Shown here piece by piece: positions 35,773 to 58,873 of a DNA stretch of 64,000 bases. Positions within the stretch are counted from its first letter, which is position 1. Each line of letters opens with the position of its first letter. The notes beneath the pieces were generated by a model. The model ran no database searches, was not told the DNA's origin, and saw only the letters and a program-made list of their open reading frames with translations. The translations under genes were made by a program, and so were the position numbers. The DNA is from an uncultured Eubacteriales bacterium. Its GTDB lineage: Bacteria; Acidobacteriota; Aminicenantia; Aminicenantales; Aminicenantaceae. The stretch is taken from contig CAYPGQ010000005.1 of assembly GCA_964410125.1 (NCBI GenBank), positions 21,395-85,394 of the forward strand. The letters run 5' to 3'.

Positions 35773-36576
35773 TTATAGGATTTCCGTTTCGAGCGATTCC
35801 AGCATTTTATGGAGTTTGACAGACTGGACATAGGTTAGGTCTGTGGAGTCGTTTTGGAGAGGCGTTACGGTTATGTATCCTTGTTTAATGATCATAACAT
35901 CGCTGTCTTTATCCCCGATAGCCTTGGGATTCCCGGTCCCGATCCAATAATAAAGCCGTCCTCTGGGATCCTCTTTTTCGATGACGCGCGGATTGTACCT
36001 TTTTTGGCCGAGGTGCGCTATTTTGATACCTCTCAAGGGAGGAGCGGGAATATTGATGTTCAGGAATATTCCTTGAGGAAGGGGATTTTCCAGGATTTCC
36101 CTGGCGAGGGTGTGCACGATCTTAGCAGCCGCAGCGAAGAAAAAACAGCCCTCCTTGTCGGGAATAAGAGAAACGGCCATCGAAGGGATGTCGAGAAAAG
36201 CTCCCTGTCTGGCGCCCGCTACGGTCCCGGAGTAAAAGGTATCCTGTTGTCCGAGATTCGGCCCATGATTGATCCCGGAGATGAGCAGATCGGGAATTCG
36301 AGGCAGGAACTTCTGGACAGCCAGGTACACACAATCTGCCGGTGTTCCGGTCACTGCATATCTATTTTTTTTGACGGGCTTAACACGCAAAGGATGATGG
36401 AGTGTTAGGGCCAGGGAAGAAGCGCTTTTTTCTTGATCCGGGGCGACGATATAAATCTGACCCAAATTGGTGAGTTCATCGGATAAAACAGAAATTCCCT
36501 CTGCATACAAACCGTCATCATTGGTCAACAAGATCAGCGGTTTTGTCATTATCATCGGTTTAATTACCTCTTTCAA
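35773..36576 (-). CDS. surE: 5'/3'-nucleotidase SurE
   Basis: LILLTNDDGLYAEGI and YIVAPDQEKSASS motifs. The true start may be an internal Met (MIMTKP). Confidence 0.85.
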   Translation of the reverse strand: MKEVIKPMIMTKPLILLTNDDGLYAEGISVLSDELTNLGQIYIVAPDQEKSASSLALTLHHPLRVKPVKKNRYAVTGTPADCVYLAVQKFLPRIPDLLISGINHGPNLGQQDTFYSGTVAGARQGAFLDIPSMAVSLIPDKEGCFFFAAAAKIVHTLAREILENPLPQGIFLNINIPAPPLRGIKIAHLGQKRYNPRVIEKEDPRGRLYYWIGTGNPKAIGDKDSDVMIIKQGYITVTPLQNDSTDLTYVQSVKLHKMLESLETEIL

Positions 36577-40439: not shown

Positions 40440-43159
40440 ACTCCCCCATATTTTTCTGCTCTTATTCTGAATGCTTCTTCTCCACCTTCCATAATATTTT
40501 TTACATCTGCCCTAATATCTTCTTTATCAATAGAGCCTTTGTTATTAATAACGCACCTTTCATTTTTAGTCTCTAAAACAAGAACCAATTCAGAGTCTCC
40601 TAAGACAGGGATGTTCGCATTATGTGTAGCAATAAATAATTGTCTTTTCCCCTTTATTTCTCTAAGGATTTTCACTACGTCCTCGTATATAAAACGGTTA
40701 TCAAGGTCCTCTTCAGGCTGGTCAAGAACAACAATCCTATCCTCTTGAGCAAATAGAAGCAATAATAAGGCAGTAGCTTTTTGACCAATAGAAAGTTTAT
40801 TAATTAATTTATATTCTTCATTCACTTTCAAAAATATTTCAATTTTGTCCTCGGGAAAAAAAGTTTCAAGCTCATAAAGTCTTTCGGAATCTTTAAACCA
40901 TTCTAATATTCTACTGGACATTGCCTGAGTGAGATTGAATTCTTCACGCAATTTCTGCTCATTACCCTTGATATATTGGGAAAGCAGAAGACCATCGGTA
41001 ACTTTATTGGGTGATTTAACCAACGCTTCAATAGCATCGCTTGAAACTTTTGAGCCTTTTAATAAGTTTTTTAAATCTTCCATAAAGTTGTCTCTTTCTT
41101 CTTCATATTTCACCTCAATTTTGAGTCTTCCTTTTAAGGCATCGTTTATTTTTTCAAGTTGTTCTTTTCTTATATTAAAAATATCATGCCTCTTCTTACC
41201 TATTTTATTCTTCGATTTCTCCCTATCATTTTCCAATTTTTCAATTTCCATTTCTAGCCTTATTAATTCTTCAATTAACGGTATTAACTTTGCCCTTTCC
41301 TTAGTCAATCTTTCGAGTTCGTCTGGTTTAAGTCCTTTCTCGGCCAATTCTTTTTTTATTTTTTGAATTTTTGTTTCTACTTTTTTCTTTTTTTCTAACC
41401 ATTCAGCATACAAGCCTTCAATACTTTTTCTGGTCTGGTCTGTTGTCTTGGAAAGCTGTTTTTTACTTTGCTCAAATGCTCTTTTAATTTGACTTATCTC
41501 TCCAGCTACCTTTTCCAGTATAAATTTATTTTCACTCTTGCCTCTCTTTAAATTATTTTCTAAATAGTTTAGTTCGGATGCAGATTCATCAAAAAAGAAA
41601 AGCATTTTTTCGTTTATTCCATCAAGTTTTTCAATTGCATCTTGTAATTTTTCTTCATCATCTACTATGTTAGTCCACCTTCTGAGTCTTTCTTCTACTT
41701 TCATACCTTTATAAACTTTTATTCCTGCTTCTATTCCCTTTAATCTTTGCTCATACTCTTCCCTTTTTCTCGTCTTTTCTTTAAGAGCTAAAAGCTTTCT
41801 TCCATTTTCTCTTAATTGTTCAATTAACCTCTTGAATTCCTCATGTAAATGCCTTATCCTCTCTCCTATTAATTCATCAATTAATTGGAGTTGAAAAGTA
41901 GGGGTAATAGAAAGAAAATAGAGTTCCTTTTGACCTATTATAATCGGATATTTTGCTTCTTCGAACAAACTCTGTATAGAAAAACCTGTCTTCACACCAC
42001 TTTCATCAATAATTTCTGTATCTTTCCCTATTGTCCTTTTTATCTCGAATTCCTTTTTCTCTTTTCCATAATATCTTTCAATAAAGACAGAAAGCTCCCC
42101 TCCACTTCCAACAACACTCTCTACAAAATCCATTCGGAAAGATTTATCTGCATAAATTGGTAAATCCATAACATATCGCATAGTTTCTATGATAGCCGAT
42201 TTACCCACACCCCTTCCTCCAATAAATGTATTTAGTTCAGGATTGAATAAAATTTCTATATCCCTCAGAAAAGTTGAGCCATTGATTAGTATCTTTGATA
42301 TTCTATTATGATAAAAAGAAGGACATTCATAAGTCTTCACCCTTACTTCTGGGTCGTGTAGAGCTATTTTTAAAGCACCAATGTTAAAAGAACTTAATTT
42401 ATAATATGTGGTTCTTAATTTACCATCCCTCTTTTTAGTGCCTATATCGTCAAGACTTTTAGGGTCAGTATTTTCAAGGATTGCTATTTTTTTAAAATAA
42501 TCAGATGGAAGTTCATTTGTAGATATAAGTTTATTTTTTCCTTCCTCAGAGATATATTCAATAGCATCAGGCTTTACATTCATCAAATACTTTGCAGATT
42601 GGGAAGGATTATAAGTATGAAGAAGTCCTTTATCATTTTCTAGGTGTGGAAATACAACCAAACATTTATATTTTTCTCGAATTTTACTTATCAACTTTTC
42701 CAGTTCTAATTCACTTTCAATATCTCTATGTTTTCTTCCGTCAACTAAGGATTTTTGTGGATTCTTGTCTAAACTGTGTAGAAATGTATTTAAACCTTTA
42801 ATATCCACATTTTGCTCAAAAATTAACAACAAATGAAGACCATATTTCCCACTTAATTTTAATGAAAGCTCAACTCCTGGAAATATTACAATTCCTTTAT
42901 CTTTAGCCTTATTCTTTATTAACTCAAACCAATCCTTTCTCAATCCGTTATAATCTGTAATAGCTCCTATCTTAATCTGCGCTTCTTGTATTTTCTTTAT
43001 ATATTCTTCTACTAATTTTTCACACTCGTTATTGGAATCTAAATTAATCCCTGGTGGTAATGTAAGACTTTCTACACCTGGAGAATGCAGATGTAAATCT
43101 GTCTTCACCCAATTTGCCCCATTATAACTTTTGTCATTCATAGTAATTAACTCTTTCAT
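40436..43159 (-). CDS. PHP-domain phosphoesterase fused to a Rad50/SMC-like ABC ATPase with a long coiled coil
   Basis: N-terminal DLHLHSPG and FPGVELSL PHP motifs. Walker A IGGRGVGKSAII at about residue 316. A coiled coil of about 350 aa. C-terminal signature SIGQKATALLLLLFA, Walker B VVLDQPEEDLD and H-loop IATHN. Confidence 0.5.
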   Translation of the reverse strand: MKELITMNDKSYNGANWVKTDLHLHSPGVESLTLPPGINLDSNNECEKLVEEYIKKIQEAQIKIGAITDYNGLRKDWFELIKNKAKDKGIVIFPGVELSLKLSGKYGLHLLLIFEQNVDIKGLNTFLHSLDKNPQKSLVDGRKHRDIESELELEKLISKIREKYKCLVVFPHLENDKGLLHTYNPSQSAKYLMNVKPDAIEYISEEGKNKLISTNELPSDYFKKIAILENTDPKSLDDIGTKKRDGKLRTTYYKLSSFNIGALKIALHDPEVRVKTYECPSFYHNRISKILINGSTFLRDIEILFNPELNTFIGGRGVGKSAIIETMRYVMDLPIYADKSFRMDFVESVVGSGGELSVFIERYYGKEKKEFEIKRTIGKDTEIIDESGVKTGFSIQSLFEEAKYPIIIGQKELYFLSITPTFQLQLIDELIGERIRHLHEEFKRLIEQLRENGRKLLALKEKTRKREEYEQRLKGIEAGIKVYKGMKVEERLRRWTNIVDDEEKLQDAIEKLDGINEKMLFFFDESASELNYLENNLKRGKSENKFILEKVAGEISQIKRAFEQSKKQLSKTTDQTRKSIEGLYAEWLEKKKKVETKIQKIKKELAEKGLKPDELERLTKERAKLIPLIEELIRLEMEIEKLENDREKSKNKIGKKRHDIFNIRKEQLEKINDALKGRLKIEVKYEEERDNFMEDLKNLLKGSKVSSDAIEALVKSPNKVTDGLLLSQYIKGNEQKLREEFNLTQAMSSRILEWFKDSERLYELETFFPEDKIEIFLKVNEEYKLINKLSIGQKATALLLLLFAQEDRIVVLDQPEEDLDNRFIYEDVVKILREIKGKRQLFIATHNANIPVLGDSELVLVLETKNERCVINNKGSIDKEDIRADVKNIMEGGEEAFRIRAEKYGGV

Positions 43160-45198
43160 TTTATCTTCACCTTCAAAACTTTATTTGTGTCATTCCCAAA
43201 CACATCCACAACTTTTGTCATTATCTGATATTCCCCTGCCTCTTCGTATTTGTGTCTAGCTTCATACTCTACTTTTGGATTCTTCTTCATCCTGAAACTC
43301 TGCCATTGATTATGAAAAGTATCGCCTTTGTAACCCCAGTCAATCGCCCAGTAGTCTATGAGCTCTCTTGAATCCTTTACCTTACAAGCGATTTCTGCAA
43401 GCTCCGCAGTTGGTGCAAGCTGAAAGTCTGTGATTTTCAGTTCTACTTCTTCCTTTTTCATTTTTGTTTCAATCTCCAAATAGGCAACTTCTGGGAATCT
43501 CACATATTTAGACAGTTCTTTTTCAATAACATCATCCCTTATTTTCAATAGTTGCAGGTCGAAACCCACTAAAGAAGATTTGATTTCATTCACTGATGGT
43601 ATTTGAACCAATTTCAAATCAACTCCGTTTTTCTTTGCTAATTCTTTTGCCAGCTCATTTACCTCATAACTCCACTCCCAGCCCAAAACATCTGCCTTAT
43701 TGAAATTATTGCTTTTACATTCAATTACAACCTTCTCAACTTCTTCCATCGTAACAGGAGCGTTCAAAGGACCAACATGTACTGCCCTCTCTCCTTTCCT
43801 TCCATGCAAATATCTAAACCCTGTTAGAGGTTGAGATTGATAGAGTTTGAGCATAAAAGCGAGGTATTCATCCTCTCTTTCCTGCCAGTAAACTGTTTCA
43901 TAATTTCCGATATTCCAGAGTTCAAAAGGTTTTGCTGGCTTTTCATAATTCTTTTTGTTTTCATCTTGTAAATCCTTTGAATTGTGAATATCTAAAAGCC
44001 TCTTTCTTGTAATTTGAATCGCAAACTTGGATAAATCAGAGCCTATCCATCTTCTACCGAGTTTCTCTGCAACCGCTAAAGTTGTGCCGGAACCGCAGAA
44101 GAAGTCAGCTACAATATCGCTTGGGTTAGAAGATGCAAGAATGACGCGTTTCAGGAGAGCTTCGGGTTTTTGAGTATCGAAGTCTAAACGCTCTGCACTG
44201 TTTGCTGAAATCGGAGCAACTTCATCATCTTTCCAAAGGTCCCCCAAGTAATTGCCTGCTTTTTCATCCAAGTATCTCTTTATCCTTGGGAGGCCGGATG
44301 ACGTAAAAATAATTTGCCCTTCGTCCATGGCTTTGTTAATCTTTTCTTGGTCCCAAATCCAATGTTTACCCGGTGGCGGATACAATAGCTTATCTCCGAA
44401 ATAACGTGGCGGGCCGCTTCCTTTCTGTGTAAAATCGAAAGAACCGTATCTCCGTCCGCTTTCCTCCTCTACATATGGGTAAACCTCCTCATCTTTTTCT
44501 CCTCTAATAAATTGTGGGTTGAAAATAGCACTGTTAGACTTTGAGTATATTAAGAGCATGTCCTTAACGTTACTGAAGAATTTGCTCTGGACTTTTGCAG
44601 CAGTCAGTTTGCGCCAAGTGATTTCATTTCTAAAATTCTCATACCCAAAAATTTCATCCATCATTACCTTAACATAATGTCCCACATGCCAGTCTAAATG
44701 CACATAAATAGAACCATTCTCAGCCAATAACCCCCTAATCAAAACCAATCGTTCGTACATATACTTGAGATAAGAAGCAATGCCACCGCTCCATGTATCT
44801 TTGTATGCTCGCTCTTCAATTATAGACGGCTCTTTTTCTATTCTCTCGTCTCCGAGTTTTGTTCTAATGGTAAAATCTGCTCCAGTAAAAAAGGGTGGGT
44901 CAATATATATCAGATTTATCTTACCAGCCCAGCCCTGCTTTATTAGAGAACTCATCACAAGCTTGTTATCCCCCCAGATGAGTTTGTTTTTCCAGTCCTT
45001 TGAATAGTTCTCAGGATACTCATTCTCCGGGAATAGTGAAACTGTATATCCTCCCTTAATTCTAGGTTTATTTACTGTTTCCACTACTTGAAAGGGAAGA
45101 TTTGGTTTCTCAACAGGTATCTTTTCCCCTTTCTCATATTTATCATATTTTTCTTCCCAAAGCAGCTCCACATATTTTTTGTTATGTGCCATATTCAT
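43156..45198 (-). CDS. Type III R-M Mod subunit (beta-class N6-adenine DNA methyltransferase)
   Basis: Motif IV IYIDPPF precedes motif I FFCGSGTT, which is the beta-class order typical of Mod proteins. Length 680 aa. The stop overlaps the next gene by 4 nt. Confidence 0.75.
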   Translation of the reverse strand: MNMAHNKKYVELLWEEKYDKYEKGEKIPVEKPNLPFQVVETVNKPRIKGGYTVSLFPENEYPENYSKDWKNKLIWGDNKLVMSSLIKQGWAGKINLIYIDPPFFTGADFTIRTKLGDERIEKEPSIIEERAYKDTWSGGIASYLKYMYERLVLIRGLLAENGSIYVHLDWHVGHYVKVMMDEIFGYENFRNEITWRKLTAAKVQSKFFSNVKDMLLIYSKSNSAIFNPQFIRGEKDEEVYPYVEEESGRRYGSFDFTQKGSGPPRYFGDKLLYPPPGKHWIWDQEKINKAMDEGQIIFTSSGLPRIKRYLDEKAGNYLGDLWKDDEVAPISANSAERLDFDTQKPEALLKRVILASSNPSDIVADFFCGSGTTLAVAEKLGRRWIGSDLSKFAIQITRKRLLDIHNSKDLQDENKKNYEKPAKPFELWNIGNYETVYWQEREDEYLAFMLKLYQSQPLTGFRYLHGRKGERAVHVGPLNAPVTMEEVEKVVIECKSNNFNKADVLGWEWSYEVNELAKELAKKNGVDLKLVQIPSVNEIKSSLVGFDLQLLKIRDDVIEKELSKYVRFPEVAYLEIETKMKKEEVELKITDFQLAPTAELAEIACKVKDSRELIDYWAIDWGYKGDTFHNQWQSFRMKKNPKVEYEARHKYEEAGEYQIMTKVVDVFGNDTNKVLKVKIK

Positions 45199-45358: not shown

Positions 45359-46087
45359 CTATATTCCTCCTAAAAATGACTTTCTTACCTTATCATTTTC
45401 AAGGAGGTTTTTTGCTTTGTCTTCAAAGGCAATTTTGCCTATTTCAAACACATAGCCTCTATCTGCATATTCTAAAGCCATTCTCGCATTCTGCTCAACA
45501 AGGAGAATGGTTGTTCCATCTTTATTAATCTCTTTTATCTTCTCAAATACAGTATTCACATAATTCGGAGAAAGTCCCAGTGACGGTTCATCCAATAAAA
45601 GCAGTTTTGGTTTTAACATCAGGGCCCTACCAATAGCAAGCATCTGTTGTTCACCACTGCTTAATGTTCCTGCTCTTTGTCTCTGTCTCTCCTTAAGAAG
45701 TGGGAATATGCTGAATACCTTATCAATATATTCTTGAAGGGTTTTTTTATTACTTCTCGTGTATGAGCCCATTTCCAGATTCTCTAAAACGTTCATTGAA
45801 GTAAAGACCCTTCTTCCTTCTGGCACCAGACAAAGTCTTTTCTCAACTAACTGATACGGCTGCTTACTATTTATGTTTTCTCCTCGATATAAAATCTCTC
45901 CCGACTTAGGTTTCACCAGACCACAAATTGCCTTTAAGGCGGTAGATTTACCAGCACCGTTTGGACCTATCATTGCCACGATTTCTCCCTCACTTATATT
46001 GAGAGAAATGTCATCCAGAGCAAGGACAGTATCGTAATATACTGTTAAGTTTCTTACCTCAAGAAGCACTTTCACGCCTCCTGCCAA
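45359..46087 (-). CDS. Branched-chain amino acid ABC transporter ATP-binding protein (LivF-like)
   Basis: Walker [10 protein letters not shown], signature LSSGEQQ, Walker B LLLLDEPS. Confidence 0.8.
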
Positions 46088-46841
46088 GATAGGCTTCTAT
46101 AACCTTATCATTTCTGGTAATCTCTTCTGGAGGTCCTTCAGCAATCTTTTGACCATAGTTTAATACAATGACATTATCAGAAATTCCTGTTACTACTTTC
46201 ATATCATGCTCAATGAATAGAATCGTCTTGCCCTTTGTTTTTAATTTCTTTAGCACATCCAGTATCTTAACTCTCATATTAGGGAAAACCCCGGCTGTTG
46301 GTTCATCCAATAAAAAGAGTTCGGCTTCCATTGCCAATGCTCGGGCTAATTCAAGCAATCGTCTCTGTCCATGAGATAAATTCTGTGCAAGTTCTTCTTT
46401 TTTGTCTATAAGACCTACCAATTCAAGATATTCCAGAGCCTTCTCTCTATTTCTCTGCTCCTCGTCCTTCATAACCTTCGATTGAAGAAGCGCAGATATA
46501 AGTCTCTCACCTTTATCATATTTAGTTGCAAGCAACATATTCTCCATGACCGTAATCTGTGGGAAAAGCCTGATATTTTGAAATGTCCGTGAGATGCCTA
46601 ATTTAGCTATCTTGTAAGGTGGCAGATTAATAATCCTTTTATTTCTAAAATATACATCTCCAGATTGAGCATTGTAGAATCCAGAGATTATATTAAACAC
46701 TGTCGTCTTACCTGCACCATTAGGACCAACCAGGGCGTTTATAGTGGCTGGTTCAATAGAGAAGTCCAGGTTGTCTACTGCAACAATTCCATCAAATTCT
46801 TTAGAAAGATCTTTAACTTCTAATAACATCTCATCACTCAC
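46059..46841 (-). CDS. Branched-chain amino acid ABC transporter ATP-binding protein (LivG-like)
   Basis: Walker [10 protein letters not shown], signature LSHGQRR, Walker B LFLLDEPT. Confidence 0.8.
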
Positions 46842-47707
46842 TTGAATTGATACCTTCCCATTATGCCTTGTGGTCTCTTGATCATAAGCACAACCAAAAG
46901 CAATCCATATAGCATCTGTCTCATCGGAGCTGCAATTGATGACGGCATACCTAGAAATCTAAGAAGTTCAGGGAAGACCACAAGAATTACTGCTCCCGCT
47001 ATAGAGCCTGATATACTTCCCATTCCGCCAAAAATAACCATAAGGAGGATGGTAATAGATTCCATTACAGTAAAGCTCGATGGATCAATGAAGGTTATGT
47101 AATGGGCATAAAGGCTCCCAGCAATCCCAGCAAAGAATGCTCCAATAATGAAAACCAATATCTTGTGCTTGGTTGTATTTTTTCCTAATGCCTGTGAGGC
47201 AATTTCATCTTCCCTGATAGATCTCAATATTCTGCCAAAAGGGGAATTCACTACTCTTCTTACAACAAAGATAGTAATTATCACAAAAACTAAAACCAGT
47301 AATAGGTAGGACCATATTTCTGACAAGTGAAAACCGAAAACGGAAAACCCAGGTATTCCAGGAAGTCCCATTGGACCTCTTGTAAGAGATACCCAGTTCT
47401 TAGCAATGGAGTAAATAATTATCCCTAATCCGAATGTTGCCAGAGCAAGATAATCTCCCTTCAGTCGCACTGCCGGATAGCCTATTACAATGCCTGAGAG
47501 TGCCGCTACACACGCTCCTATCGACAATCCTATCCAGGGAGATAAATCCATATTTAATGCAAGGAGACTTGATGTATATGCCCCTATACAAAAAAAGGCT
47601 GCATGACCCAGTGCTGGTAGGCCTGTATATCCCACAATGAGATTAAGGCTCAGGGTAAGAATTATGTAAATCCCAGCAATAATAAGTATATGTAAGAGAT
47701 ACTCCAT
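46838..47707 (-). CDS. Branched-chain amino acid ABC transporter permease (LivM-like)
   Basis: Polytopic permease. Overlaps the adjacent genes by 4 nt. Confidence 0.7.
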
Positions 47708-47711
47708 AGCC

Positions 47712-48590
47712 TTAAATTGTGTCCTTTTCTGTTTTGGTACCTAAAAAACCCCATGGTCTTATCAAAAGAAAAATTATAAGGATAACAAACGCTATACAAT
47801 CCTTCCATCCGGCTGATATTTTCCAGATACCAAGATTCTCAGCTAATCCCAGAAAGAATCCACCCAGCACTGCACCTGGAATACTACCGATGCCACCGAT
47901 AATAGAGGCAATAATTCCCTTCAAGAGAGCGCTGAATCCCATTGTTGGTTCAATATTTGTTTCAAAGGAAATAAGTATCCCAGCAGCACCGGCTAATGCA
48001 GAGCCTATGGCAAATGAAGTCAAGACTATCTTCTCGGGATTTATACCAACAATATTTGCCGCTATGGGATCATCAGACACCGCCCTCATTGCCTTGCCGA
48101 GCTTTGTCTTCTGGATAAAAAGCAAGAGTAGTATCATAAGAATGATTGAGACCGCTAAAATTAAAATCTGGATATCAGTAATCACGGCGCCAAGAAAATG
48201 GTGTCCTTCTTTAATAGGGCCGGTTCTTATTGTAAGAATCTGTGCTCCATAGAGCAGTTGAATCAGGTTTTGAAGGAAGATAAAGACACCGAATGATGCA
48301 AGGAGAAAAATCAGGTTAGATGCATTCTGTTTGCGAAGGGGATGATAGACGAATCTATCAATGGCTATACCTAAAAGTCCTGCTAAAATTATCGCTGAAA
48401 AAAAAGAAAGGACGAAATTGAGGTGCAAGGAAATAATTAGTGTATAAGCAAAATACGCACCGGTCATATAAACCACCCCATGAGCAAAGTGAAAAAACTT
48501 TACCGTACGATAGATTACAGTAAAGCCTATAGCAATGAGGGCATAAATGCTGCCTGCGATTATGCCGTTAAGTATTAATTGTTGTATCAT
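47712..48590 (-). CDS. Branched-chain amino acid ABC transporter permease (LivH-like)
   Basis: Polytopic permease immediately upstream of the LivM-like gene. Confidence 0.7.
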   Translation of the reverse strand: MIQQLILNGIIAGSIYALIAIGFTVIYRTVKFFHFAHGVVYMTGAYFAYTLIISLHLNFVLSFFSAIILAGLLGIAIDRFVYHPLRKQNASNLIFLLASFGVFIFLQNLIQLLYGAQILTIRTGPIKEGHHFLGAVITDIQILILAVSIILMILLLLFIQKTKLGKAMRAVSDDPIAANIVGINPEKIVLTSFAIGSALAGAAGILISFETNIEPTMGFSALLKGIIASIIGGIGSIPGAVLGGFFLGLAENLGIWKISAGWKDCIAFVILIIFLLIRPWGFLGTKTEKDTI

Positions 48591-48868: not shown

Positions 48869-50785
48869 TCATTGGTGAAGGTTTCTTAAGGGAAAAATCC
48901 TCTCGAAAAACTTATTGAAGACAGTTATTTGGTAAAGGGAGTACAATTCTGCTTTTTCAAGCTCTCCTGTCCAGTCTGATTGGAAAGATTCGTTGTGTAG
49001 CACACTTTTTTCAGGCAGTGCCAAAACAAAGGATTCATCTGCAACTAAAATTGAGTACACCTCTTCCCAGCCCGCGCGAGAAAAAAGCAAAGAAATGAAG
49101 AGACGCATCCACTCTTTTTCTTTGTGCCCAAAGTATAAAAGGAAAATAGCATGGGAATCTTTCAAATGTGCGTATAGAGGATTTCTTGTGGACTTATTGC
49201 CAATATCCATACTTAAAAAATCCATCGATAGATAGTGAGGAGGATCGGCTATAATAAGATTGTAATCTCCGTAATAAATATCGTTGGGTTCTTCTAACGG
49301 TGGTTGCTTTTTATAGTGATTTGTCAACGAAAATATATCAGCAGGCACGATATGAGCTGCACTTGAGACTTTCTCATTATACGGAAAAGGATTTTTATCT
49401 ATACTAGCAATGTTCAGCTGTTCGTCTGATGATCCCCGTAGGAAACACTCATTTAGACCTGTTCCGGAAAAAAGACTAAGTATCTTTAGATTATTTTTAT
49501 TTTTAATTGCTTGTACTACAGATAAGGAGATATATCCTAAAAGCGGAGAGGGGCCGACTTGCTCTGAATATCTATAAACCAAATCTAGCTCGTTTTCCCT
49601 CAATTGTACACCAAGTTTCTCAAATTTCTTTCTGTAGATCCCCAAAACAGAATCATCAGAGACTTCATTCTTTGTCCATTCATATAAGTTAACATCCATA
49701 GCTTCAGTCACCTCAATCGTTGGCGAGATAAAAACATCTACCCTTATCTTTAGTTTATCCACCGGAATTACATTTGTCTTTTCGGTAACTTTCAATTCTT
49801 TACATTGAAGAGCCTCCAAATAACCTTTCATCCAACCATTTAAGTATTCCTCTATTTTATTTAATATCATCGCTGAGTCACTATATAGAAAATTGTATCC
49901 ATCTTTGTTAGAGATATATAGTCTTATTATTAGAACATACGCTGGATGCTTCGGTGAATTTTTGTTACCTATTCGCTCTACCACAAATAAATTGTGTCCA
50001 ATATTATCAACGCTGACTATATCCCTCTTATTCCGAACTTTTATCATATTCTCAACATATCGGTTGGCTTCTCCTTTAAGATGATTAACAAAGTCTTTAT
50101 TGGATATGCAGAAGCGTTTATAGCTCTTTTTATATTCCAAACAAAAATTATATGTAGAGTGAATAACTTCCATAATCCTTTTACATAGAATCTTAAGCTC
50201 CTCATCATACTTATACATATCCGTATATTCTTCCTCTAAAACAAGGGCAATTCCCCCAAGAGTCCCATGTGAATAAATCGCAAATTTAAAGTTTTCATAT
50301 TTTTCCTTTTGAACAGTTAAAAAAGAATACGCTGTAGAAACCACACTATGCTTATAAGTCAAATCTTGAATATCACCAACCAGTTCAAAGTTTTTCCATG
50401 TAGATGGAGATTCCAATTTAAATCCTGCCGGAATGGGTTTTTTTATGCCAAAATGTCTAAGTTTTTCTTCGCTCCTCAGTGCAATATGTTTGTCCCAATA
50501 AATTTTTAAGAAGTCCGCGTACTTTTTTTGGGTTTCTTCCTTTATATTGCCAGTGTAAACGAGTTTTCTATCAGACCTTTTGTAATGGATCCCTCCTATA
50601 GTAATTCCTATAATTTTAAACTTCTTTTGTATAGATTCCCATCGTTTTTCCGCGATGCATTTAACTGGATTGTCGGTTTTATTATTATGCGACAACAAAT
50701 CTCTCCTTATTGTATCCACTATCGCACTTTCGAAAGAAAGGAGAGCTTCTTTTCTTAATTGTAGTTTTTGGTCATTGACACCCAT
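48869..50785 (-). CDS. Hypothetical 638-aa protein with a C-terminal amino-methyltransferase-like domain (FSGTG ... DPPH)
   Basis: The C-terminal third carries LSLFSGTGLNE (motif I-like) followed about 80 aa later by NLIIADPPHY (a (D/N)PPY-type motif IV, gamma-class order). The N-terminal 400 aa resemble nothing I recognise. Confidence 0.4.
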   Translation of the reverse strand: MGVNDQKLQLRKEALLSFESAIVDTIRRDLLSHNNKTDNPVKCIAEKRWESIQKKFKIIGITIGGIHYKRSDRKLVYTGNIKEETQKKYADFLKIYWDKHIALRSEEKLRHFGIKKPIPAGFKLESPSTWKNFELVGDIQDLTYKHSVVSTAYSFLTVQKEKYENFKFAIYSHGTLGGIALVLEEEYTDMYKYDEELKILCKRIMEVIHSTYNFCLEYKKSYKRFCISNKDFVNHLKGEANRYVENMIKVRNKRDIVSVDNIGHNLFVVERIGNKNSPKHPAYVLIIRLYISNKDGYNFLYSDSAMILNKIEEYLNGWMKGYLEALQCKELKVTEKTNVIPVDKLKIRVDVFISPTIEVTEAMDVNLYEWTKNEVSDDSVLGIYRKKFEKLGVQLRENELDLVYRYSEQVGPSPLLGYISLSVVQAIKNKNNLKILSLFSGTGLNECFLRGSSDEQLNIASIDKNPFPYNEKVSSAAHIVPADIFSLTNHYKKQPPLEEPNDIYYGDYNLIIADPPHYLSMDFLSMDIGNKSTRNPLYAHLKDSHAIFLLYFGHKEKEWMRLFISLLFSRAGWEEVYSILVADESFVLALPEKSVLHNESFQSDWTGELEKAELYSLYQITVFNKFFERIFPLRNLHQ

Positions 50786-50801: not shown

Positions 50802-51824
50802 TTACTTCAAATGTGGGTAGGAATCAGTATATTTCCATGCAGGATCGTAAAAGAACATTAGAAATATTTTGTTCTTAACCTTCTTAGCCATTTTAAGACA
50901 TGCCATTAGGGTCAAGCAGGAGCTTCTACCAACGAGTTGTTCTTCTATTCCATGCAGAAGTTTTTCACCTTCTTTATAAGTGTCTTGTGGGAGTAGAATA
51001 AAATCATCTATTATATCTAAATTAATATCTAATTTCTCTGGAGGCAAACCGAATGGCGCGATTCCGTATATCTCATGAATAAGTTTTTCGCGGTCTAACA
51101 CTTCCCCTTTTGCTTTTAGTGTTTGAATCATAGGAAGCTCAGAAGGTTCCACAACAATAACTTTTTCTGAATTCAGAGTTGCCTTCAGATATTCTCCACT
51201 CCCACTTATAGTGGTACCTGACCCTACAACTCCTACATGAAAGTCAGGCATTACACCATAATTCTTTTTAATAATAAACAAAGTATCCTGCATAAGTTTA
51301 TGAAAAGCCTTTTTAGCACTTGGGCTTATTTTAGTAACACAGTATAGCCGATGAGGATTCTCTCCGATTTTTCCGCCCTTTTTTACTTTGTCCTCATTTA
51401 AAATTTCCTCTAACTTTTTGACATAGCCTTTTGCATATTCACCAGCAGGAGAAAAGACTACTTCGCAACCATATTCTTTTATCTGCTCTACTCTTGCCTG
51501 AGGGGTGTCTTTGTGGGTAATGACTGTGCACTTTTTGTATCCCAGTAAGGTCGCACATTTTGCAAATGCGGCTCCTGCATTCCCCGTGCTGGCTTCTATC
51601 ACTGGTGTAATACCTGCTACAATATATCCTTTCTCCTCAGCCTCCTGAAACAAAATTGGATAAATCCTGTCAAATGTGCTCCCCGTAGGATTCTTCCATT
51701 CTTCAATTGCGAATATCCTGTTTCTATTAGGTATTTCTATCTTCTTGATTTCATATACCGAGGCGCGAATTACACTTATCTCTTTATACAGTTTTTCTCT
51801 ACTTTCAGGTAACATTGTCTTCAC
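50802..51824 (-). CDS. Cysteine synthase-fold (PLP fold type II) protein lacking the Schiff-base lysine
   Basis: Aligns to the CysK/threonine synthase signature across NPTGSTFDRI (canonical NPSFSVKCRIG / NPTGSFKDRG), ASTGNAG (TSGNTG) and GVVGSGTTISG (GVGTGGT). The PLP lysine position is Phe. It overlaps the SBP gene by 4 nt. Confidence 0.6.
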   Translation of the reverse strand: MKTMLPESREKLYKEISVIRASVYEIKKIEIPNRNRIFAIEEWKNPTGSTFDRIYPILFQEAEEKGYIVAGITPVIEASTGNAGAAFAKCATLLGYKKCTVITHKDTPQARVEQIKEYGCEVVFSPAGEYAKGYVKKLEEILNEDKVKKGGKIGENPHRLYCVTKISPSAKKAFHKLMQDTLFIIKKNYGVMPDFHVGVVGSGTTISGSGEYLKATLNSEKVIVVEPSELPMIQTLKAKGEVLDREKLIHEIYGIAPFGLPPEKLDINLDIIDDFILLPQDTYKEGEKLLHGIEEQLVGRSSCLTLMACLKMAKKVKNKIFLMFFYDPAWKYTDSYPHLK

Positions 51825-52942
51825 TCTCCCACTTCTACAAATTGTCCATTTTTTATCGTTTTGAGCATTACTTGTGCTATGATATCTCCGTTCTTATCAA
51901 AACTTATAGGCCCGATCGCACCCGGAAATTTTTTAAGTGAGTACAAACCTTTTTTTATATCCTCAGAACTCCCGCTAGAAGTGGCAATTACTTCATACAA
52001 TACTCTAATTGCATCATATCCAAGAGCAGAAAAGAGATCGGGAACTTCACCATATTTCTTTTGGTACTTTTCAGAGAAGCTTTTTGCTACCTTTAATGTT
52101 TTCGGAGTGAATTTCTGCATCGTGTATATAACGCCTTCAGCTGCATTACCAGCTATTTTTATCACTTCCGGGGATTCAATCCCTATAGTGCTAAAAATTC
52201 TATCTTGAAATCCCAATTCCTTTGCCTGTCTGAGAAAATGAGCCATTTCTAATGAATGACCGATAAGATAAACTCCGTCATAGTGAGATTGTCGTAACTT
52301 TGCAATAACTGTCCGAAAATCAGATGTTCCCTGCTCATACCCCTCAGAATAACCGATGCTACCTCCCACTGACTCATATTTTTTCTTAAAAACCTCAAAG
52401 TTACCTGCACCATAGTCTGTATTCACAAAAATCACAGCCAATTTGCTTATCTTATATGTCTTAATAGCTTCTTCCGCCATTGCCTCAACTTCTAACTTTC
52501 CACTTAATCTTAATCTAAAAATATTCTCTCCGGCTTCTGTAATAAGTGGACTGGTGGCACCTGAAGATAAAAAGACAACCTTTTCTTGCTCCGCTATTGG
52601 TGCACAGGCCATAACAATAGAACTTCCCACCCCCCCGGTTACCGCCGCCACTTTCTCCGCTCGAATCAGCTTGTTAAAAGCACTTACCCCTGCCTGAGGG
52701 TTTGTTTGAGAATCTTGAACAATAAGTTCTACCTCTATAGGCTTATTCTGATTAATCTCTTCTACTGCAATTTGCATTCCCTTGTAGTTTCGTTCGCCTT
52801 GTGGAGCTAGTGGGCCTGTTAAGGGTAATATCACCCCAATCTTTATCTCCCCTTGCTCTTTCTTTGTCTGGGTGACAAAGAACACGATGGCTAAAGCCAC
52901 AACCACCACGACACCGATTCCGATCCATATGTTCCGTTTCAT
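51821..52942 (-). CDS. ABC transporter substrate-binding protein (LivK / Peripla_BP_6-like)
   Basis: N-terminal TM/signal, then IKIGVILPLTGPLAPQG typical of branched-chain amino acid/amide binding proteins. Confidence 0.75.
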   Translation of the reverse strand: MKRNIWIGIGVVVVVALAIVFFVTQTKKEQGEIKIGVILPLTGPLAPQGERNYKGMQIAVEEINQNKPIEVELIVQDSQTNPQAGVSAFNKLIRAEKVAAVTGGVGSSIVMACAPIAEQEKVVFLSSGATSPLITEAGENIFRLRLSGKLEVEAMAEEAIKTYKISKLAVIFVNTDYGAGNFEVFKKKYESVGGSIGYSEGYEQGTSDFRTVIAKLRQSHYDGVYLIGHSLEMAHFLRQAKELGFQDRIFSTIGIESPEVIKIAGNAAEGVIYTMQKFTPKTLKVAKSFSEKYQKKYGEVPDLFSALGYDAIRVLYEVIATSSGSSEDIKKGLYSLKKFPGAIGPISFDKNGDIIAQVMLKTIKNGQFVEVGE

Positions 52943-53019: not shown

Positions 53020-53562
53020 TCAATGATCCTGGGCCATAATTCCGACTTTTCTCAACTGTTCCTTAAGATATTGCTCACTCCTGTTCAATATACCCTTGAA
53101 GTGTTTCCGAACCACAATATCAAATTTAGGACAAAGTTGACTTTCCAAATCCTTCATCCGGTTAGGCCTTAAACTTTCAATCAACATCTCTCTTGTTGGG
53201 ATTTCATCCATCGGGATTTTCGCAAGAATCCAGTTTTCAAGAGGGGCAAGACGTAAGACTGCTATAACAGGTTGGTAGCCATCGTGAGTACGGTCACGAA
53301 GAGCCTGCACATTATCAGTGGTGAGAGGAATTGATAATTTCTCTGTGGTTTTTACCTCAACTGCAAACTTTTGATTAGATTCCGATGTTATATCAATATC
53401 AACTCCTTGCACGCCTCGTTCTACAATATTAGTAAAGCCCATTTCATGGAAGCTGAGAGCCAGTAGTTTTTGTACAATTTTGCCAAAAGGTCCAGATGGT
53501 GTACCTTTGATTCCAAACTTTTTCTGCAACTTCTGTAAAAGTTCAAGAGTTTCTACTTTCAT
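53020..53562 (-). CDS. Small PD-(D/E)xK-fold nuclease-like protein
   Basis: GVDIDITSESNQKFAVEVKT matches the D-x(n)-E-x-K restriction-endonuclease-like core. Its start is 3 nt after the upstream ATPase stop. Confidence 0.4.
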   Translation of the reverse strand: MKVETLELLQKLQKKFGIKGTPSGPFGKIVQKLLALSFHEMGFTNIVERGVQGVDIDITSESNQKFAVEVKTTEKLSIPLTTDNVQALRDRTHDGYQPVIAVLRLAPLENWILAKIPMDEIPTREMLIESLRPNRMKDLESQLCPKFDIVVRKHFKGILNRSEQYLKEQLRKVGIMAQDH

Positions 53563-53564
53563 AA

Positions 53565-55742
53565 TTATATTTCCTTCGAAATTTTCGGGCCGGAATCCGG
53601 TGCCCAGTCCGAAAGCTTATATATAGTTTTGACTTTGGTAATATTATCCTTTAAAAGCTGTTGCATTTCAGCATCCATAGTAGAGACTGTAATGTTTTTT
53701 ATATCGCTGAGTTCATTAAAGATTTCTACAAGACGAGCTTTTTGCTGTGAATCTAAACTTTGCGATGAGTCGTCCATCAAGATAAATCCGAGAGGATGAG
53801 AATCTCCAGATGCTTTAGTCAAACCTAAGAAAATAGACAAAGCAAGGCTATTCAGGTCTCCTTGACTTAGAACAGGAATGGGTCTCTTGCCGTCTTGGTC
53901 TTCGAAAATATAAAAGTTTCCGCCAGTTTTTTTATCCTCATCTACTTTAATATTGAGTGTTTGAAAAGCCGGGTTGTTGGTTATTCTACGAAAGTAGCGG
54001 CCAATTGCACTCCTGGCTGAATCAATTTTTTCTTCTGCTTCCTTTAGCATACAAGATTTGATAATTTTACTAAGTTCTTCCACGTCTCTTACTAGATTTG
54101 AGACATCGGTTCTGATTTTCTCTTGTTTCTGGTATTCATTGGTTTTTTGAATTTGGTTTATTTCTTCGAGTTTATTCTTAAATAGCAAAATATCATAAAG
54201 TAAGTTCATTATATCTGTTTTTTCTAAAATGGCGTCAATTGTAACTTGCTTATTCTTAATAGCATCTGCAATCTCTTTTAAACGTGAATCAATGTTTTTT
54301 ATTTCTATGGATAATATTGCAGCAGGATCATCCTTATCAGTCAACTCTTTATGTAGAAATTCTGAGATATTATTGATTGCCTTCTTTAATTCCTCTTTTT
54401 CTCTTCTAGCGTCTTTCTCTAAGTGGACAAGTTCCTTCTTCAATCTTTCAAAATCGGTTTTCTTTTTGTCTAATTCTGCCTGTTGTTTTTCTAACTCCTG
54501 CACTTGGGCTGTAATTTTTTCCTCCCATTCCTTTCGTAAATGCTCAAGCAAATTGGACACCTTTTCTCCGCATAAGGGACAAATGTCAGCATCAGAGGGA
54601 GCAGCTAATTTCAGAATGGAAATACCTTCTTCAATCAATTTCGCTTTCGGGCTTATTCGCTTAATTTCTTTATTAATAGCATCAATCTCTTCAAATGCTT
54701 TTCTTATTTTATTGTCGATTTCATCTTTGTTGCCATTTTCTTGTTCAAAATCCTGAAGTTCCTTCTTCTTTGATTTAAGATTCAGGTATTGAGTCTCATA
54801 TTTACTTTTGAATGAAACCATTTCGCTTCTCTTCCTTTGTTTTTCTGATTGTTCTTTCACGTCGGGAGATTCTGCCCAAAGACGGCTGCACTCATTCTTA
54901 ATATCGGTAATAAATGACTCGGTATTTTTCCAATCAGAAGGAGGAGAAATTGCCGTTGTTGTAAGTCCCAATAGTCGGGCAAAGTTACCAATGTCTTTTA
55001 TGGTTGATTCTACCAGTTCAAGCAGTTTATTTTCGTTTAATTCTTCTTCACTCAGTCCCTTCTCTTTGGCTTTATCTCTTTTATTATCCAGGTCTTTTTG
55101 CCTTATCTTTATCCCTTCTTGTACACGGGTCTGAAATTTATTAAATTCTTCTGTAAGCTCTTTCTGAAGCTTTAAGACGTCAGACTTCTTAATACCATCA
55201 AGAATATTCCGATAATCTGATAAACCTAAGAGGCGGTCCATTACAGCACTCTGTTCGCTTGGTTTTTGTATCACAAAGTCGTGGATAGTCTCCTGGTGTT
55301 GATATACGGTAGTAGCAAAGTCTTTGAATGAAACCCGAAGTAACTTTGCTATTTCTTGGTCACCCTCGTCTCCTTCTTTCTCTGTTCCATTTGGCAAAGA
55401 TATTTTTATACTTTTGCCTTTTTTGCCTTTTCCCTTGGCTTCGGCTCGAGTAATAGTAAAGATTCCCTGTTCTCCCTCGATTTTCAAATTTACCTTGGCC
55501 TTCTCAGAATTATCATTCACAACTCTCCAGGCCATCTCACCTGTGCCTACACGTTCACGAATTCCAGATTTTTCACCAATGCACTCATCTCCATACAAAC
55601 ACCATTCAATTGCATTTAATACACTACTCTTACCTTGATGATTTCCCCCATGTAGTAAAGTAACGGGATTTTCGAATTCGATAGAGGTTTTTTGAGTAAA
55701 TCCTCTGAATCCTTCTATTTCTACTTTTTTAATCTTTAACAT
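53565..55742 (-). CDS. Compact Rad50/SbcC-like ABC ATPase with coiled coil and a CxxC zinc hook
   Basis: N-terminal EIEGFRGF...HGGNHQGKSSVLNAIEWCLYG (Walker A). A central coiled coil with ICPLCGEK at its midpoint. C-terminal signature LSQGDLNSLALSIF and Walker B FILMDDSSQSLD. Confidence 0.6.
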   Translation of the reverse strand: MLKIKKVEIEGFRGFTQKTSIEFENPVTLLHGGNHQGKSSVLNAIEWCLYGDECIGEKSGIRERVGTGEMAWRVVNDNSEKAKVNLKIEGEQGIFTITRAEAKGKGKKGKSIKISLPNGTEKEGDEGDQEIAKLLRVSFKDFATTVYQHQETIHDFVIQKPSEQSAVMDRLLGLSDYRNILDGIKKSDVLKLQKELTEEFNKFQTRVQEGIKIRQKDLDNKRDKAKEKGLSEEELNENKLLELVESTIKDIGNFARLLGLTTTAISPPSDWKNTESFITDIKNECSRLWAESPDVKEQSEKQRKRSEMVSFKSKYETQYLNLKSKKKELQDFEQENGNKDEIDNKIRKAFEEIDAINKEIKRISPKAKLIEEGISILKLAAPSDADICPLCGEKVSNLLEHLRKEWEEKITAQVQELEKQQAELDKKKTDFERLKKELVHLEKDARREKEELKKAINNISEFLHKELTDKDDPAAILSIEIKNIDSRLKEIADAIKNKQVTIDAILEKTDIMNLLYDILLFKNKLEEINQIQKTNEYQKQEKIRTDVSNLVRDVEELSKIIKSCMLKEAEEKIDSARSAIGRYFRRITNNPAFQTLNIKVDEDKKTGGNFYIFEDQDGKRPIPVLSQGDLNSLALSIFLGLTKASGDSHPLGFILMDDSSQSLDSQQKARLVEIFNELSDIKNITVSTMDAEMQQLLKDNITKVKTIYKLSDWAPDSGPKISKEI

Positions 55743-56757: not shown

Positions 56758-58236
56758 TTATGCTCCAAGAACCCATTGGACTGTGAGTTCCTTTTCATCA
56801 AAGAGACTCTTCGCAGTCGTAGCATCGTCTTTTGCAAGACGTGCAGCAATTTCACCTGACGGATCAGGGTCGTCCCATATCTTGTGGTCGAATATCTTCT
56901 TGACAAATCGTCTGAAGTAATTGAATTCCTCATCTGGAATGACACGGTAGAAAAAGAGCGCTCTCTCTTCGTCTGTATAATTTTTCAGGTGTATATTAAT
57001 TGCATCTCTCAATAGAATAGCCCAAGCCCTCACGGCTCCCGCGCTAAAGATTCTTTCAGCTTTTTTGTGCACAGCATCAGCACGTTCAGGCGCCCACTTA
57101 TCTTCTAATCCTTCTTCAGCGATAATAGTCATAAGTTTGACTAGATTGCGCTTTTCGTCCTTTCGAAAGTCGGTATCGGATTCGAATTCTTCATCAACGG
57201 GCGGCGACACCAGCATGTGTTGAAAAAAAGTCTTTTTTATTCGAGCAAATGTCAAGGGTTGCTTTCGACCTCTGTGCTTCTCTGATAGATACCTTGACAA
57301 CTTGTTTGACTCATCGTTTACTATTTCATTGTACAAAGCTAGTGCGATTTCATTTCTAGCTTGTGCCCATGTCTTTTGCTTTGAGTGGAAGAGGAAATTG
57401 TAGAAACCTAATTCCGACTTTTCTCCTTCCGTATCCATATATTCTATCCAGTCCTCTCCAAAGATATCGGCATATTTCTGCATCAATTCATGAGAATAAA
57501 ATGACATTTGTCTGTATGGCCCGTGTGCATCAAGATTGGTTTCCTTTAGCAATCTCTTGTCTGGGGTGATGTATATTTTACATTCTATCATTGGACGCCC
57601 AGCCCAAATTTGAGCTGCTGCTTTATGTTGTCCGTCGAAGAGATAAAGAGTGCCACTTTCATCGATTCTACAAATTGAGGGGGATATCTGTGTGTTAATT
57701 TGAAAGTGCCGATATAACTTCCATAAATTTGGCTCTCGTAGGGGGCGGGGTTGTAACTCAATGTCATTTCCGATGTATTCAACTGGTAATGTTCCGTAGA
57801 AATATTTCCAATTGGTTGTTGCGCATATGTAAAGTGGAAAGTCATGCCTGGAATCCTTATAAAATAGGCTGATATGCTCTTCTTTGATTTCGTAGCTGAG
57901 TCGTTCTCCACAATGCCCCTTTTTATGACGGATTAAATCGTCAAGAAATTTAGGCTCCCCACCTTCGAAAAATGCCGCGAGTTCTATCTTGTCACGATAC
58001 TCTTGAAGGCTCATTGTACCAATCGTGCGATGGTGACGTTTGCAAACGGGAGCAATATTATCCAAGCTAGTTGGACCACCTGAGGAAAATGGTTTAATGT
58101 GATGAAATTCGATAGACGCATCCTCAGGAATAGGTTCCCCGTCAACAAAGCACCTTCGCTCATGCTGATCGAGAACCTTTTGCTTTTCAGTTTCTGAGAG
58201 CTGTCTTTTTTTGGCCATTTCTTCCCTCCTTTTCAT
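56758..58236 (-). CDS. HNH endonuclease domain fused to a DGQHR / ParB-like (DUF262-like) domain
   Basis: N-terminal CFVDG...HHIKPFSSGG...LDNIAPVCKRHH (HNH). Mid-protein LYLFDGQHKAAAQIWAGR, a DGQHR-type ParB/DndB-like motif. Confidence 0.5.
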   Translation of the reverse strand: MKRREEMAKKRQLSETEKQKVLDQHERRCFVDGEPIPEDASIEFHHIKPFSSGGPTSLDNIAPVCKRHHRTIGTMSLQEYRDKIELAAFFEGGEPKFLDDLIRHKKGHCGERLSYEIKEEHISLFYKDSRHDFPLYICATTNWKYFYGTLPVEYIGNDIELQPRPLREPNLWKLYRHFQINTQISPSICRIDESGTLYLFDGQHKAAAQIWAGRPMIECKIYITPDKRLLKETNLDAHGPYRQMSFYSHELMQKYADIFGEDWIEYMDTEGEKSELGFYNFLFHSKQKTWAQARNEIALALYNEIVNDESNKLSRYLSEKHRGRKQPLTFARIKKTFFQHMLVSPPVDEEFESDTDFRKDEKRNLVKLMTIIAEEGLEDKWAPERADAVHKKAERIFSAGAVRAWAILLRDAINIHLKNYTDEERALFFYRVIPDEEFNYFRRFVKKIFDHKIWDDPDPSGEIAARLAKDDATTAKSLFDEKELTVQWVLGA

Positions 58237-58796: not shown

Positions 58797-58873
58797 TGGT
58801 CGGGACGGGCGGATTTGAACCGCCGACCCCACGCACCCCAAGCGTGTGCGCTACCAGACTGCGCCACGTCCCG
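58797..58873 (-). tRNA. tRNA-Pro (anticodon GGG), CCA encoded
   Basis: The minus-strand sequence CGGGACG-TG-GCGC-AGTCTGGTA-GCGC-A-CACGC-TTGGGGT-GCGTG-GGGTC-GGCGG-TTCAAAT-CCGCC-CGTCCCG-A-CCA folds into a canonical cloverleaf with anticodon GGG and G37. Confidence 0.8.

Follow-up and report, generated by a model that had tools for sequence, protein, structure and literature searches.

PLP enzymes are commonly defined by one residue, the lysine that holds pyridoxal phosphate (PLP) as a Schiff base. A phenylalanine is found at the position of this lysine in a protein of an uncultured Eubacteriales bacterium; its gene, named here the PALP gene after its Pfam family, lies at 50802..51824 on the minus strand of a stretch of 64,000 nucleotides (contig CAYPGQ010000005.1, positions 21,395 to 85,394), the whole of which is called the window in the following. 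By its predicted fold the protein is built on the scaffold of cysteine synthase (CysK), a member of fold type II. Proteins with this scaffold can relay the state of a small molecule to a partner, as CYSL-1 does with EGL-9 in Caenorhabditis elegans and CysK with CymR, CysE and CdiA-CT; these regulators keep the lysine and their catalytic competence, and they bind the C-terminal isoleucine tail of the partner in the active site. In GabR, a regulator of the MocR type with a fused DNA-binding domain, the formation of the PLP external aldimine is itself the sensing event, and the lysine is kept. The sugar dehydratases ColD and E1, which depend on pyridoxamine phosphate (PMP) and act on nucleotide sugars, have a histidine in place of the lysine and are still functional, a precedent for lysine-independent catalysis. 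GabR, ColD and E1 belong to fold type I and differ in this from the proteins considered here.

Fold type II enzymes in which the Schiff-base lysine has been mutated to alanine retain PLP, and amino acids become trapped in them as external aldimines (PMC3316156 and structure entry titles); the titles include K43A with O-ureido-serine, K42A of CBS with methionine, and K95A. Such mutants (OASS K41A/K42A, DcsD K43A, CBS K42A and beta-cyanoalanine synthase K95A) have kept the pocket and lost the lysine, as is the case here, but they are laboratory changes to alanine, whereas the replacement described below is natural, ancient and conserved, introduces an aromatic residue and is accompanied by changes at K165, H104 and R300. 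Nematode CBS-1's N-terminal module is a natural fold type II module that has lost the PLP lysine: it is non-catalytic and binds no PLP, the lysine is replaced by Glu and a conserved glycine of the phosphate loop by Asn, and its authors were aware, in 2012, of no other such case (PMC3316156). That module is a fused eukaryotic domain with a degenerate pocket, whereas the clade to which the window protein belongs is a free-standing prokaryotic family with near-invariant loops. In our literature searches for a lysine-less fold type II family, for PALP sensor domains and for the diadenylate cyclase (DAC) cassette described below, only nematode CBS-1 was relevant; it is the only natural exception found for this fold type, and the clade reported here is large and includes both Bacteria and Archaea.

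Phenylalanine in place of the Schiff-base lysine

The PALP gene is an intact open reading frame (ORF) that encodes 340 amino acids if translation starts at a GTG. The ATG at 51815 is the likelier start: it is also chosen by public gene callers, gives a product of 337 residues that matches database protein P0001 exactly, and has a Shine-Dalgarno-like GGGAGAG 9 nucleotides upstream, within the 3' end of the preceding gene. The protein carries EEWKNPTGSTFDRIY, EASTGNAGAAF and GVVGSGTTISG. When the protein is aligned by phmmer with solved CysK structures, which needs no gaps, eewKNPTGSTFDRI stands opposite eyqNPGGSVKDRI, and Phe51, encoded by TTT (51672..51674, minus strand), falls on the Schiff-base lysine, Lys41 of CysK; the same alignments pair ASTGNAG with PTSGNTG, VGSGTTISG with VGTGGTLSG and GRSSC with GISSG. 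The register of Phe51 is fixed, since conserved residues flank it on either side (N45, P46, S49, D52 and R53). The only lysine nearby, K44, is not conserved within the family; with this, and with alignments that are free of gaps, an alternative register that would place a lysine at the PLP position was ruled out. The same applies to Lys331 in the C-terminal WKY motif as a replacement, as it is aligned with the canonical D...[KR]-Y motif that is also present in relatives with the Schiff-base lysine. The first-pass annotation, drawn from the letters of the window, had proposed a change of Lys to Phe at the PLP site with retention of the glycine loops; the change is real, and the equivalents of both loops, STGNAG and GSGTT, are indeed in place.

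A word-indexed protein search retrieved 55 homologs with 34-100% identity; Phe51 is near-invariant in their alignment, where the most distant member has Tyr. No variation is seen at G81, N82, A83 and G84, and little or none at G201, S202, G203, R300 and S302. A sequencing error, or a decaying pseudogene of a cysteine synthase, would account for the missing lysine, which is the sole point in its favour, and we give this explanation a negligible probability. TTT differs from the lysine codons at all three positions (three substitutions from AAA and likewise three from AAG); 18 contigs from separate samples encode the identical protein, the ORF is intact and the fold is predicted with confidence. 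The change is also conserved throughout the clade, with both phenylalanine codons in use (TTT in 17 and TTC in 2 of 19 distinct loci with Phe at this position).

The match to Pfam PF00291 (PALP) covers residues 35-319 (E 2.1e-34) and scores 119.7 bits, where 35 are required. An AlphaFold2 model built from the family alignment has a predicted local distance difference test (pLDDT) score of 94.8, reaching 97-98 near the motif, and a predicted TM-score of 0.93, and it shows, together with Foldseek, the two-domain CysK/TrpB-like fold; the top Foldseek matches are all CysK/OASS, beta-cyanoalanine synthase or CBS (E 1e-23 to 1e-19, TM-score 0.75-0.87, 21-26% identity), and the PDB structure search gave nothing closer than CysK-type structures at 21-26% identity. 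The active-site lysine of fold type II is not part of this agreement, Phe51 being at the aligned position. Scores against the curated cysteine synthase models of NCBIfam are far below the cutoffs: 108.5 of the required 350.95 bits for cysK (TIGR01139), 102.2 of 344.15 for cysKM (TIGR01136) and 67.1 of 394.2 for cysM (TIGR01138). Among the threonine synthase models (NCBIfam NF004996, TIGR00260 and others) the best score is 30.1 bits against a cutoff of 266, and the cutoffs of all NCBIfam models are missed by the window protein, by members with Tyr at position 51 and by the nearest lysine-bearing sisters. As judged from its scores and predicted fold, the gene product is a CysK-scaffold protein outside the CysK/CysM and threonine synthase families. 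The earlier label of a cysteine synthase or threonine-synthase-fold protein holds for the fold, which is that of CysK and fold type II; membership in either family does not follow.

CysK, CysM and the CBS core have the same fold and are the best sequence matches, with the asparagine loop, the glycine loop for the phosphate, the serine facing N1 and the C-terminal D...[KR]Y motif in common. The residue roles that we map onto the window protein are those established for Salmonella typhimurium OASS-A. All on the minus strand, S79-T-G-N-A-G84 (51573..51590) corresponds to the CysK asparagine loop TSGNTG, which contacts O3' of PLP and the substrate carboxylate, G201-S-G-T-T205 (51210..51224) to the phosphate-binding loop GTGGT, and R300-S-S302 (50919..50927) to G-I-S-S, with the serine that bonds the pyridine N1. 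Lys165 (codon AAA, 51330..51332) is aligned with Gln142 of CysK, which belongs to the QFxNP loop in the substrate pocket. At the carboxylate site the agreement is partial, as the loop STGNAG is similar to TSGNTG but the equivalent of Gln142 is Lys165. The roles of OASS Gln142, Thr72, Asn71 and Ser69 are confirmed by published work, where Gln142 is a pocket residue that touches ligand carboxylates beside PLP (PMC3805590). Sequence identity to CysK, CysM and the CBS core is about 22-26%. Differently from CysK, the window protein has Phe for Lys41, Lys for Gln142, Arg300 for the Ile or Pro before the two serines, and an insertion of about 13 residues ahead of the loop equivalent to that of Gln142; moreover, its gene is found in an importer operon and not beside cysE or sulfur-assimilation genes.

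Conservation of the pocket was counted in the 66 family proteins that have Phe at position 51 (Phe-types; Tyr-types and Lys-types are named in the same way). G81 is found in all of them, N82 and G203 in 65, G201 and S202 in 63, and Ser or Thr at position 302 in 62, although Phe-type proteins are only about 50% identical overall. The combination of lysine loss and pocket degeneration that marks a dead module is not what these counts describe. Engineered Lys-to-Ala mutants still hold PLP, and therefore loss of the lysine does not equal loss of the cofactor; PLP, or a closely similar phospho-aromatic ligand, is most likely still bound by the window protein, in a non-covalent way.

Other positions have changed together with the loss of the lysine. 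Lys occupies position 165 in 65/66 Phe-types, and in 80/81 members of the subclade to which all Phe-types belong; the equivalent residue is mostly His (48) or Ala (16) in the other Tyr-types, with other residues in the rest, and Gln in the Lys-types. In the AlphaFold2 model the K165 loop follows a short strand and precedes a long helix, like that of Gln142. Phe at position 51 is confined to the K165 background, being found in none of about 100 other lysine-less members; by parsimony only about three changes at position 51 occurred inside the subclade, and the correlation between the two positions, which relates to few events, is suggestive and not statistical. His104 is specific to the Phe-types (60/66, with Pro elsewhere). 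Arg300, before the two serines, is specific to the lysine-less clade: it is found in 57/66 Phe-types and 50/123 Tyr-types, and Ile or Pro takes its place in the Lys-types. It had been stated that the protein cannot form an internal aldimine; this is correct for position 51 alone and not for the protein as a whole, because the Phe subclade has gained an invariant K165 in the substrate pocket.

A lysine-less clade in Bacteria and Archaea

A profile search of 1.84 billion cluster representatives gave 339 proteins at E <= 1e-30. In 231 family proteins aligned to the family hidden Markov model, the Schiff-base column holds Tyr in 123, Phe in 66, His in 7 and Lys in 30. For 213 near-full-length sequences a neighbour-joining tree, with a canonical CysK-like protein as its root, was computed without bootstrap values and is indicative only; the lysine-less proteins fall here into a single clade of 184 leaves (110 Tyr, 64 Phe, 7 His and 3 gapped), with no Lys-type inside. 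The Lys-types that adjoin the clade have the common motif TGSHKDRxY. All Phe-types, the window protein included, fall within a subclade of 81 leaves (64 Phe, 11 Tyr and 4 His), and the window protein has the motif of the clade, NPTGS-x-[YFH]-DR-x-Y. The replacement of the lysine is thus common to the homologs, with Phe in all 66 close relatives and Tyr, Phe or His across the clade of about 184 representatives. The Schiff-base lysine was replaced by an aromatic residue that was probably Tyr in the ancestor and is Phe in the window protein. With the best 150-230 sequences considered, the clade comprises at least about 180 representatives of clusters at 50% identity.

Named members come from Caldithrix abyssi, from metagenome-assembled genomes (MAGs) of Latescibacterota and from one archaeal MAG, and loci of the clade were found in Micrarchaeota, Woesearchaeota and Patescibacteria; a scan of the genome collection gave only two fragmentary close relatives, from Patescibacteria and Woesearchaeota, and a Tyr-type from Micrarchaeota. 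This clade is covered by no Pfam subfamily, by no model of NCBIfam or PADLOC, by no PDB entry and by no paper in the literature searched. Its proteins are annotated in public databases as 'cysteine synthase A' or 'pyridoxal-phosphate dependent enzyme', which is very probably wrong; such annotation would inflate the cysteine biosynthesis attributed to uncultured lineages, including DPANN and candidate phyla radiation (CPR) organisms with reduced genomes. The clade has dropped the lysine, but the remainder of the cofactor pocket has been kept and is strongly constrained; the genes of the clade are linked to those of amino-acid importers and of kinase-like, diadenylate-cyclase and sigma-54 proteins.

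Outside the clade, an odd architecture was observed in P0152, a protein of 754 residues and one of the nearest Lys-type relatives (TGSHKDRAY), which is fused to S-adenosylmethionine (SAM) methyltransferase and DHBP synthase (RibB) domains.

Gene linkage and possible functions

In the window, co-directional genes on the minus strand follow the order LivJ-like, PALP, X638, LivH, LivM, LivG and LivF. The LivJ-like substrate-binding protein (51821..52942) matches Peripla_BP_6 (1.8e-59) and has an N-terminal membrane anchor or signal; the stop codon of its gene overlaps the GTG of the PALP gene, or sits 5 nucleotides ahead of the ATG. As read from this layout, the PALP gene is translationally coupled to the LivJ-like gene, within a LivHMGF importer operon. 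X638, a protein of 638 residues with no assigned family, is encoded 16 nucleotides downstream of the PALP gene (48869..50785); then come the LivH-like (47712..48590) and LivM-like (46838..47707) permeases of the ATP-binding cassette (ABC) type and the LivG-like (46059..46841) and LivF-like (45359..46087) ABC ATPases.

X638 gave no match in Pfam, NCBIfam or PADLOC, a profile search of PDB sequences was empty, and the word-indexed protein search returned only X638 itself; as for the PALP protein, PADLOC-DB 2.0 contained no match at E <= 0.01. Only three homologs, all metagenomic and in the same operon slot, were found (loci L021/L022 and L024/L030, 31-37% identity). A single-sequence AlphaFold2 prediction had a pLDDT of 37.6. 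By motifs alone, the C-terminal part (LSLFSGTG ... ADPPHY) is reminiscent of amino-methyltransferases, and in the family the series LDLFSGT ... DPPH[YF] ... LLYFGHKEKEW resembles their motifs I and IV; a segment TLGGIALV is GAF-like in look, again by motif.

Gene contexts of the relatives were read from a few dozen metagenomic contigs, mostly short. A binding-protein gene is placed directly upstream of the PALP gene, overlapping it or a few nucleotides away, in about ten independent loci (the window, L003, L004, L021/22, L023, L024/30, L025, L027/28, L032 and L035); the binding proteins are 40-57% identical to that of the window, and LivHMGF genes lie downstream, but upstream in L022. The slot after the PALP gene in these importer loci always holds a large gene, which belongs to at least five unrelated families: X638-like proteins in the window, L021/22 and L024/30, a membrane or coiled-coil protein of 543-581 residues in L023, L027/28, L032 and L035, a PNP_UDP_1 protein of 533 residues in L004, which matches the PADLOC model 'PN-superfamily effector' (2.3e-17), and two further uncharacterised proteins in L003 and L025.

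The contexts of Tyr-type genes (PALP-Y) are of other kinds. In L055 (6539-12570) a PutP-like symporter gene, which overlaps PALP-Y by 14 nucleotides, is followed by PALP-Y, by a gene for a 554-residue protein and by a sigma-54 activator gene; the 554-residue protein has a sub-threshold match to HATPase_c (7.5e-4) and N- and G-box motifs, and is kinase-like. This layout resembles a split transporter-kinase system of the CbrA/CbrB type, with PALP in the position of the sensor. In P0074, PALP-Y is fused to a tail with a weak GAF match and H-, N- and G-box motifs, also kinase-like. A five-gene cassette is found in four loci (L041:982-8020, L044, L058:1703-9478 and L059:1176-8184), where an HD phosphohydrolase, a PEP-utilizers protein and a PPDK_N protein precede PALP-Y and a protein of about 790 residues, with a GAF-like region and a C-terminal DAC domain. 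In L058 the cassette is preceded by a SLATT two-transmembrane (2TM) effector (8.6e-13), and PADLOC matched none of the core genes of the cassette, which may represent an undescribed system for nucleotide signalling or conflict.

An uptake component, then PALP, then a large and variable output-like protein, with one fusion of the last two, is the pattern to be expected of a conserved sensing (input) module, and the trapping of amino acids in a closed form by Lys-to-Ala mutants offers a concrete physical mechanism for such a sensor. We tentatively favour, at somewhat less than even confidence, the view that the window protein is a non-canonical ligand sensor with non-covalently held PLP, and not a cysteine or threonine synthase. 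An amino acid taken up by the co-encoded LivJHMGF-type importer would condense with bound PLP, at its free aldehyde, to form an external aldimine, with Lys165 holding the carboxylate of the ligand; the aldimine would not be turned over, because an active-site base or a lysine able to displace the ligand is lacking in the proposed mechanism. The two domains would then close, like those of CysK-type enzymes that carry the Lys-to-Ala change, and the closed state might be read by the downstream partner, X638 in the window, by the transporter, or by both. The PALP protein would therefore act as the ligand-sensing input of a small regulatory module linked to a transporter. If this were true, the clade would represent a new class of cytoplasmic metabolite receptors, the natural counterpart of the 'trap' mutants. 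The suggestion of the first-pass annotation that the protein is a sensor or binding partner rather than a catalyst agrees with the gene neighbourhoods and with the one fusion to a kinase-like tail, and as an inference it is retained here.

The C-terminal isoleucine tail of the CysK partners is absent from the partner proteins found here. Several observations weigh against a sensor. The partner classes have no domain in common and no shared docking module in hhalign and BLAST comparisons. In about six lineages the Phe-type gene stands alone, away from transporter and partner genes, and in L043 it lies between a flavin adenine dinucleotide (FAD) oxidase and a PhyH dioxygenase, a metabolic-looking context. 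The kinase-like assignments are below the Pfam thresholds; the PEP-synthase-like enzymes of the DAC cassette look metabolic, and so does P0186, where PALP-Y is fused to an NADP-oxidoreductase domain resembling pyrroline-5-carboxylate (P5C) reductase. Finally, an invariant lysine in the pocket, K165, is what would be expected if catalysis had been kept. It is possible, although unlikely, that the protein is an active PLP enzyme whose Schiff-base lysine has moved: the internal aldimine would be formed by Lys165, across the substrate pocket from the old site, position 51 would have become a packing aromatic, and the substrate would be the amino acid that the ABC transporter brings in. We know of no example of a relocated lysine in fold type II. 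Conservation of the whole PLP pocket, the near-invariance of K165 in the subclade and the restriction of Phe51 to this background speak for such a takeover, but the correlation rests on about three changes at position 51, and Tyr-types with His, Ala or Gly at position 165 are equally conserved, which indicates that the clade as a whole does not need Lys165. K165 is aligned with a residue that touches the carboxylate beside PLP (PMC3805590), a location in keeping with the takeover; Gln142 binds the carboxylate, however, and does not face C4'. In this case the migration of a catalytic lysine would be documented within a classic enzyme fold. An active enzyme that works without any internal aldimine is, in our opinion, an improbable alternative to the same degree; PLP or PMP would be held non-covalently, and Tyr or His in the relatives, and Lys165 or His104 in the window protein, would serve as acid/base. 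The conserved pocket and the Phe-type-specific His104 would fit, as would the Tyr or His that most clade members offer at position 51 and the enzyme-like fusions and neighbours (the P5C-reductase-like domain, the FAD oxidase, PhyH, and PPDK_N with PEP-utilizers). However, the interchange of Tyr, Phe and His at position 51 suggests that the ring matters and not its functional group, and a metabolic enzyme would not usually be met beside transporters and kinase-like proteins or fused to a kinase-like tail. The window operon points to no particular substrate or pathway; its third gene differs between loci, with at least five unrelated families in this slot.

Two other explanations were considered. 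In one of them, the PALP protein is the conserved sensor of a mobile conflict module of the defence type, which has swappable effectors, and the importer operon is cargo of a genomic island; this explanation, which overlaps with the sensor proposed above, seems to us rather unlikely. The operon lies in a low-GC stretch full of restriction, Schlafen-like, SMC-like ATPase, DNA methylase and HNH genes, L003 and L004 are found among Gabija-like, MmeI-like, AbiE, ParE and TPR-CHAT genes, and the variety of families in the partner slot, the effector match of the L004 partner and the SLATT effector ahead of the L058 cassette point in the same direction. To our knowledge, a complete LivJHMGF importer has no role in defence. 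PADLOC does not match PALP, X638 or the other cassette members, and an abundance of defence genes may simply be usual in the genomes of these lineages; furthermore, partners of the X638 type and of class B are conserved with the operon (31-39% identity), which suggests a stable vertical association and not shuffling. A cofactor-free scaffold or adaptor is more doubtful still: a lysine-less, PLP-free fold type II module has a precedent (PMC3316156) and a bulky aromatic takes the place of the lysine in every member, but the glycines of the phosphate loop, Asn82 and Ser302 are near-invariant at about 50% identity, unlike in the nematode module, which would be hard to explain without a bound ligand, and the window contains no second, lysine-bearing PALP gene with which the protein could pair.

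The low-GC island and further loci

The complete Liv-type importer operon occupies the middle of a low-GC island at 36737-58873, between surE (35773-36576) and a tRNA-Pro(GGG) gene (58797-58873); the GC content is 0.33-0.40 in the island and 0.40-0.475 in the flanks. The island encodes a type III restriction enzyme (36737-39283), a Schlafen protein with AlbA_2 and HATPase_c_4 domains (39270-40439), a PHP-AAA ATPase (40436-43159), an N6/N4 DNA methylase (43156-45198), an uncharacterised protein of 180 residues with an SMC-like ATPase of 725 residues (53020-55742) and an HNH protein (56758-58236).

Some features of single loci were also recorded. Two Phe-type paralogs, each about 50% identical to the window protein, are present in one organism (L024:1652-2656 on the minus strand, L024:4198-5265 on the plus strand, and L030:1-485); one is part of an operon with binding-protein, PALP and X638-like genes, and the other lies just upstream in divergent orientation. 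In L032 (1320-2360) the PALP gene is split into two ORFs (1320-1973 and 1998-2360), by a lineage-specific frameshift or stop or by an assembly error. Stand-alone Phe-type genes recur near Fic and NUDIX genes in L001, L002 and L006, which are putative archaeal or small-genome contigs. In L003 (9068-15631), genes for AbiEii, for ParE with its antitoxin and for a 23S_rRNA_IVP protein are inserted among the individual ABC transporter genes, and a Gabija-like OLD/UvrD pair and an MmeI-like enzyme are encoded upstream.

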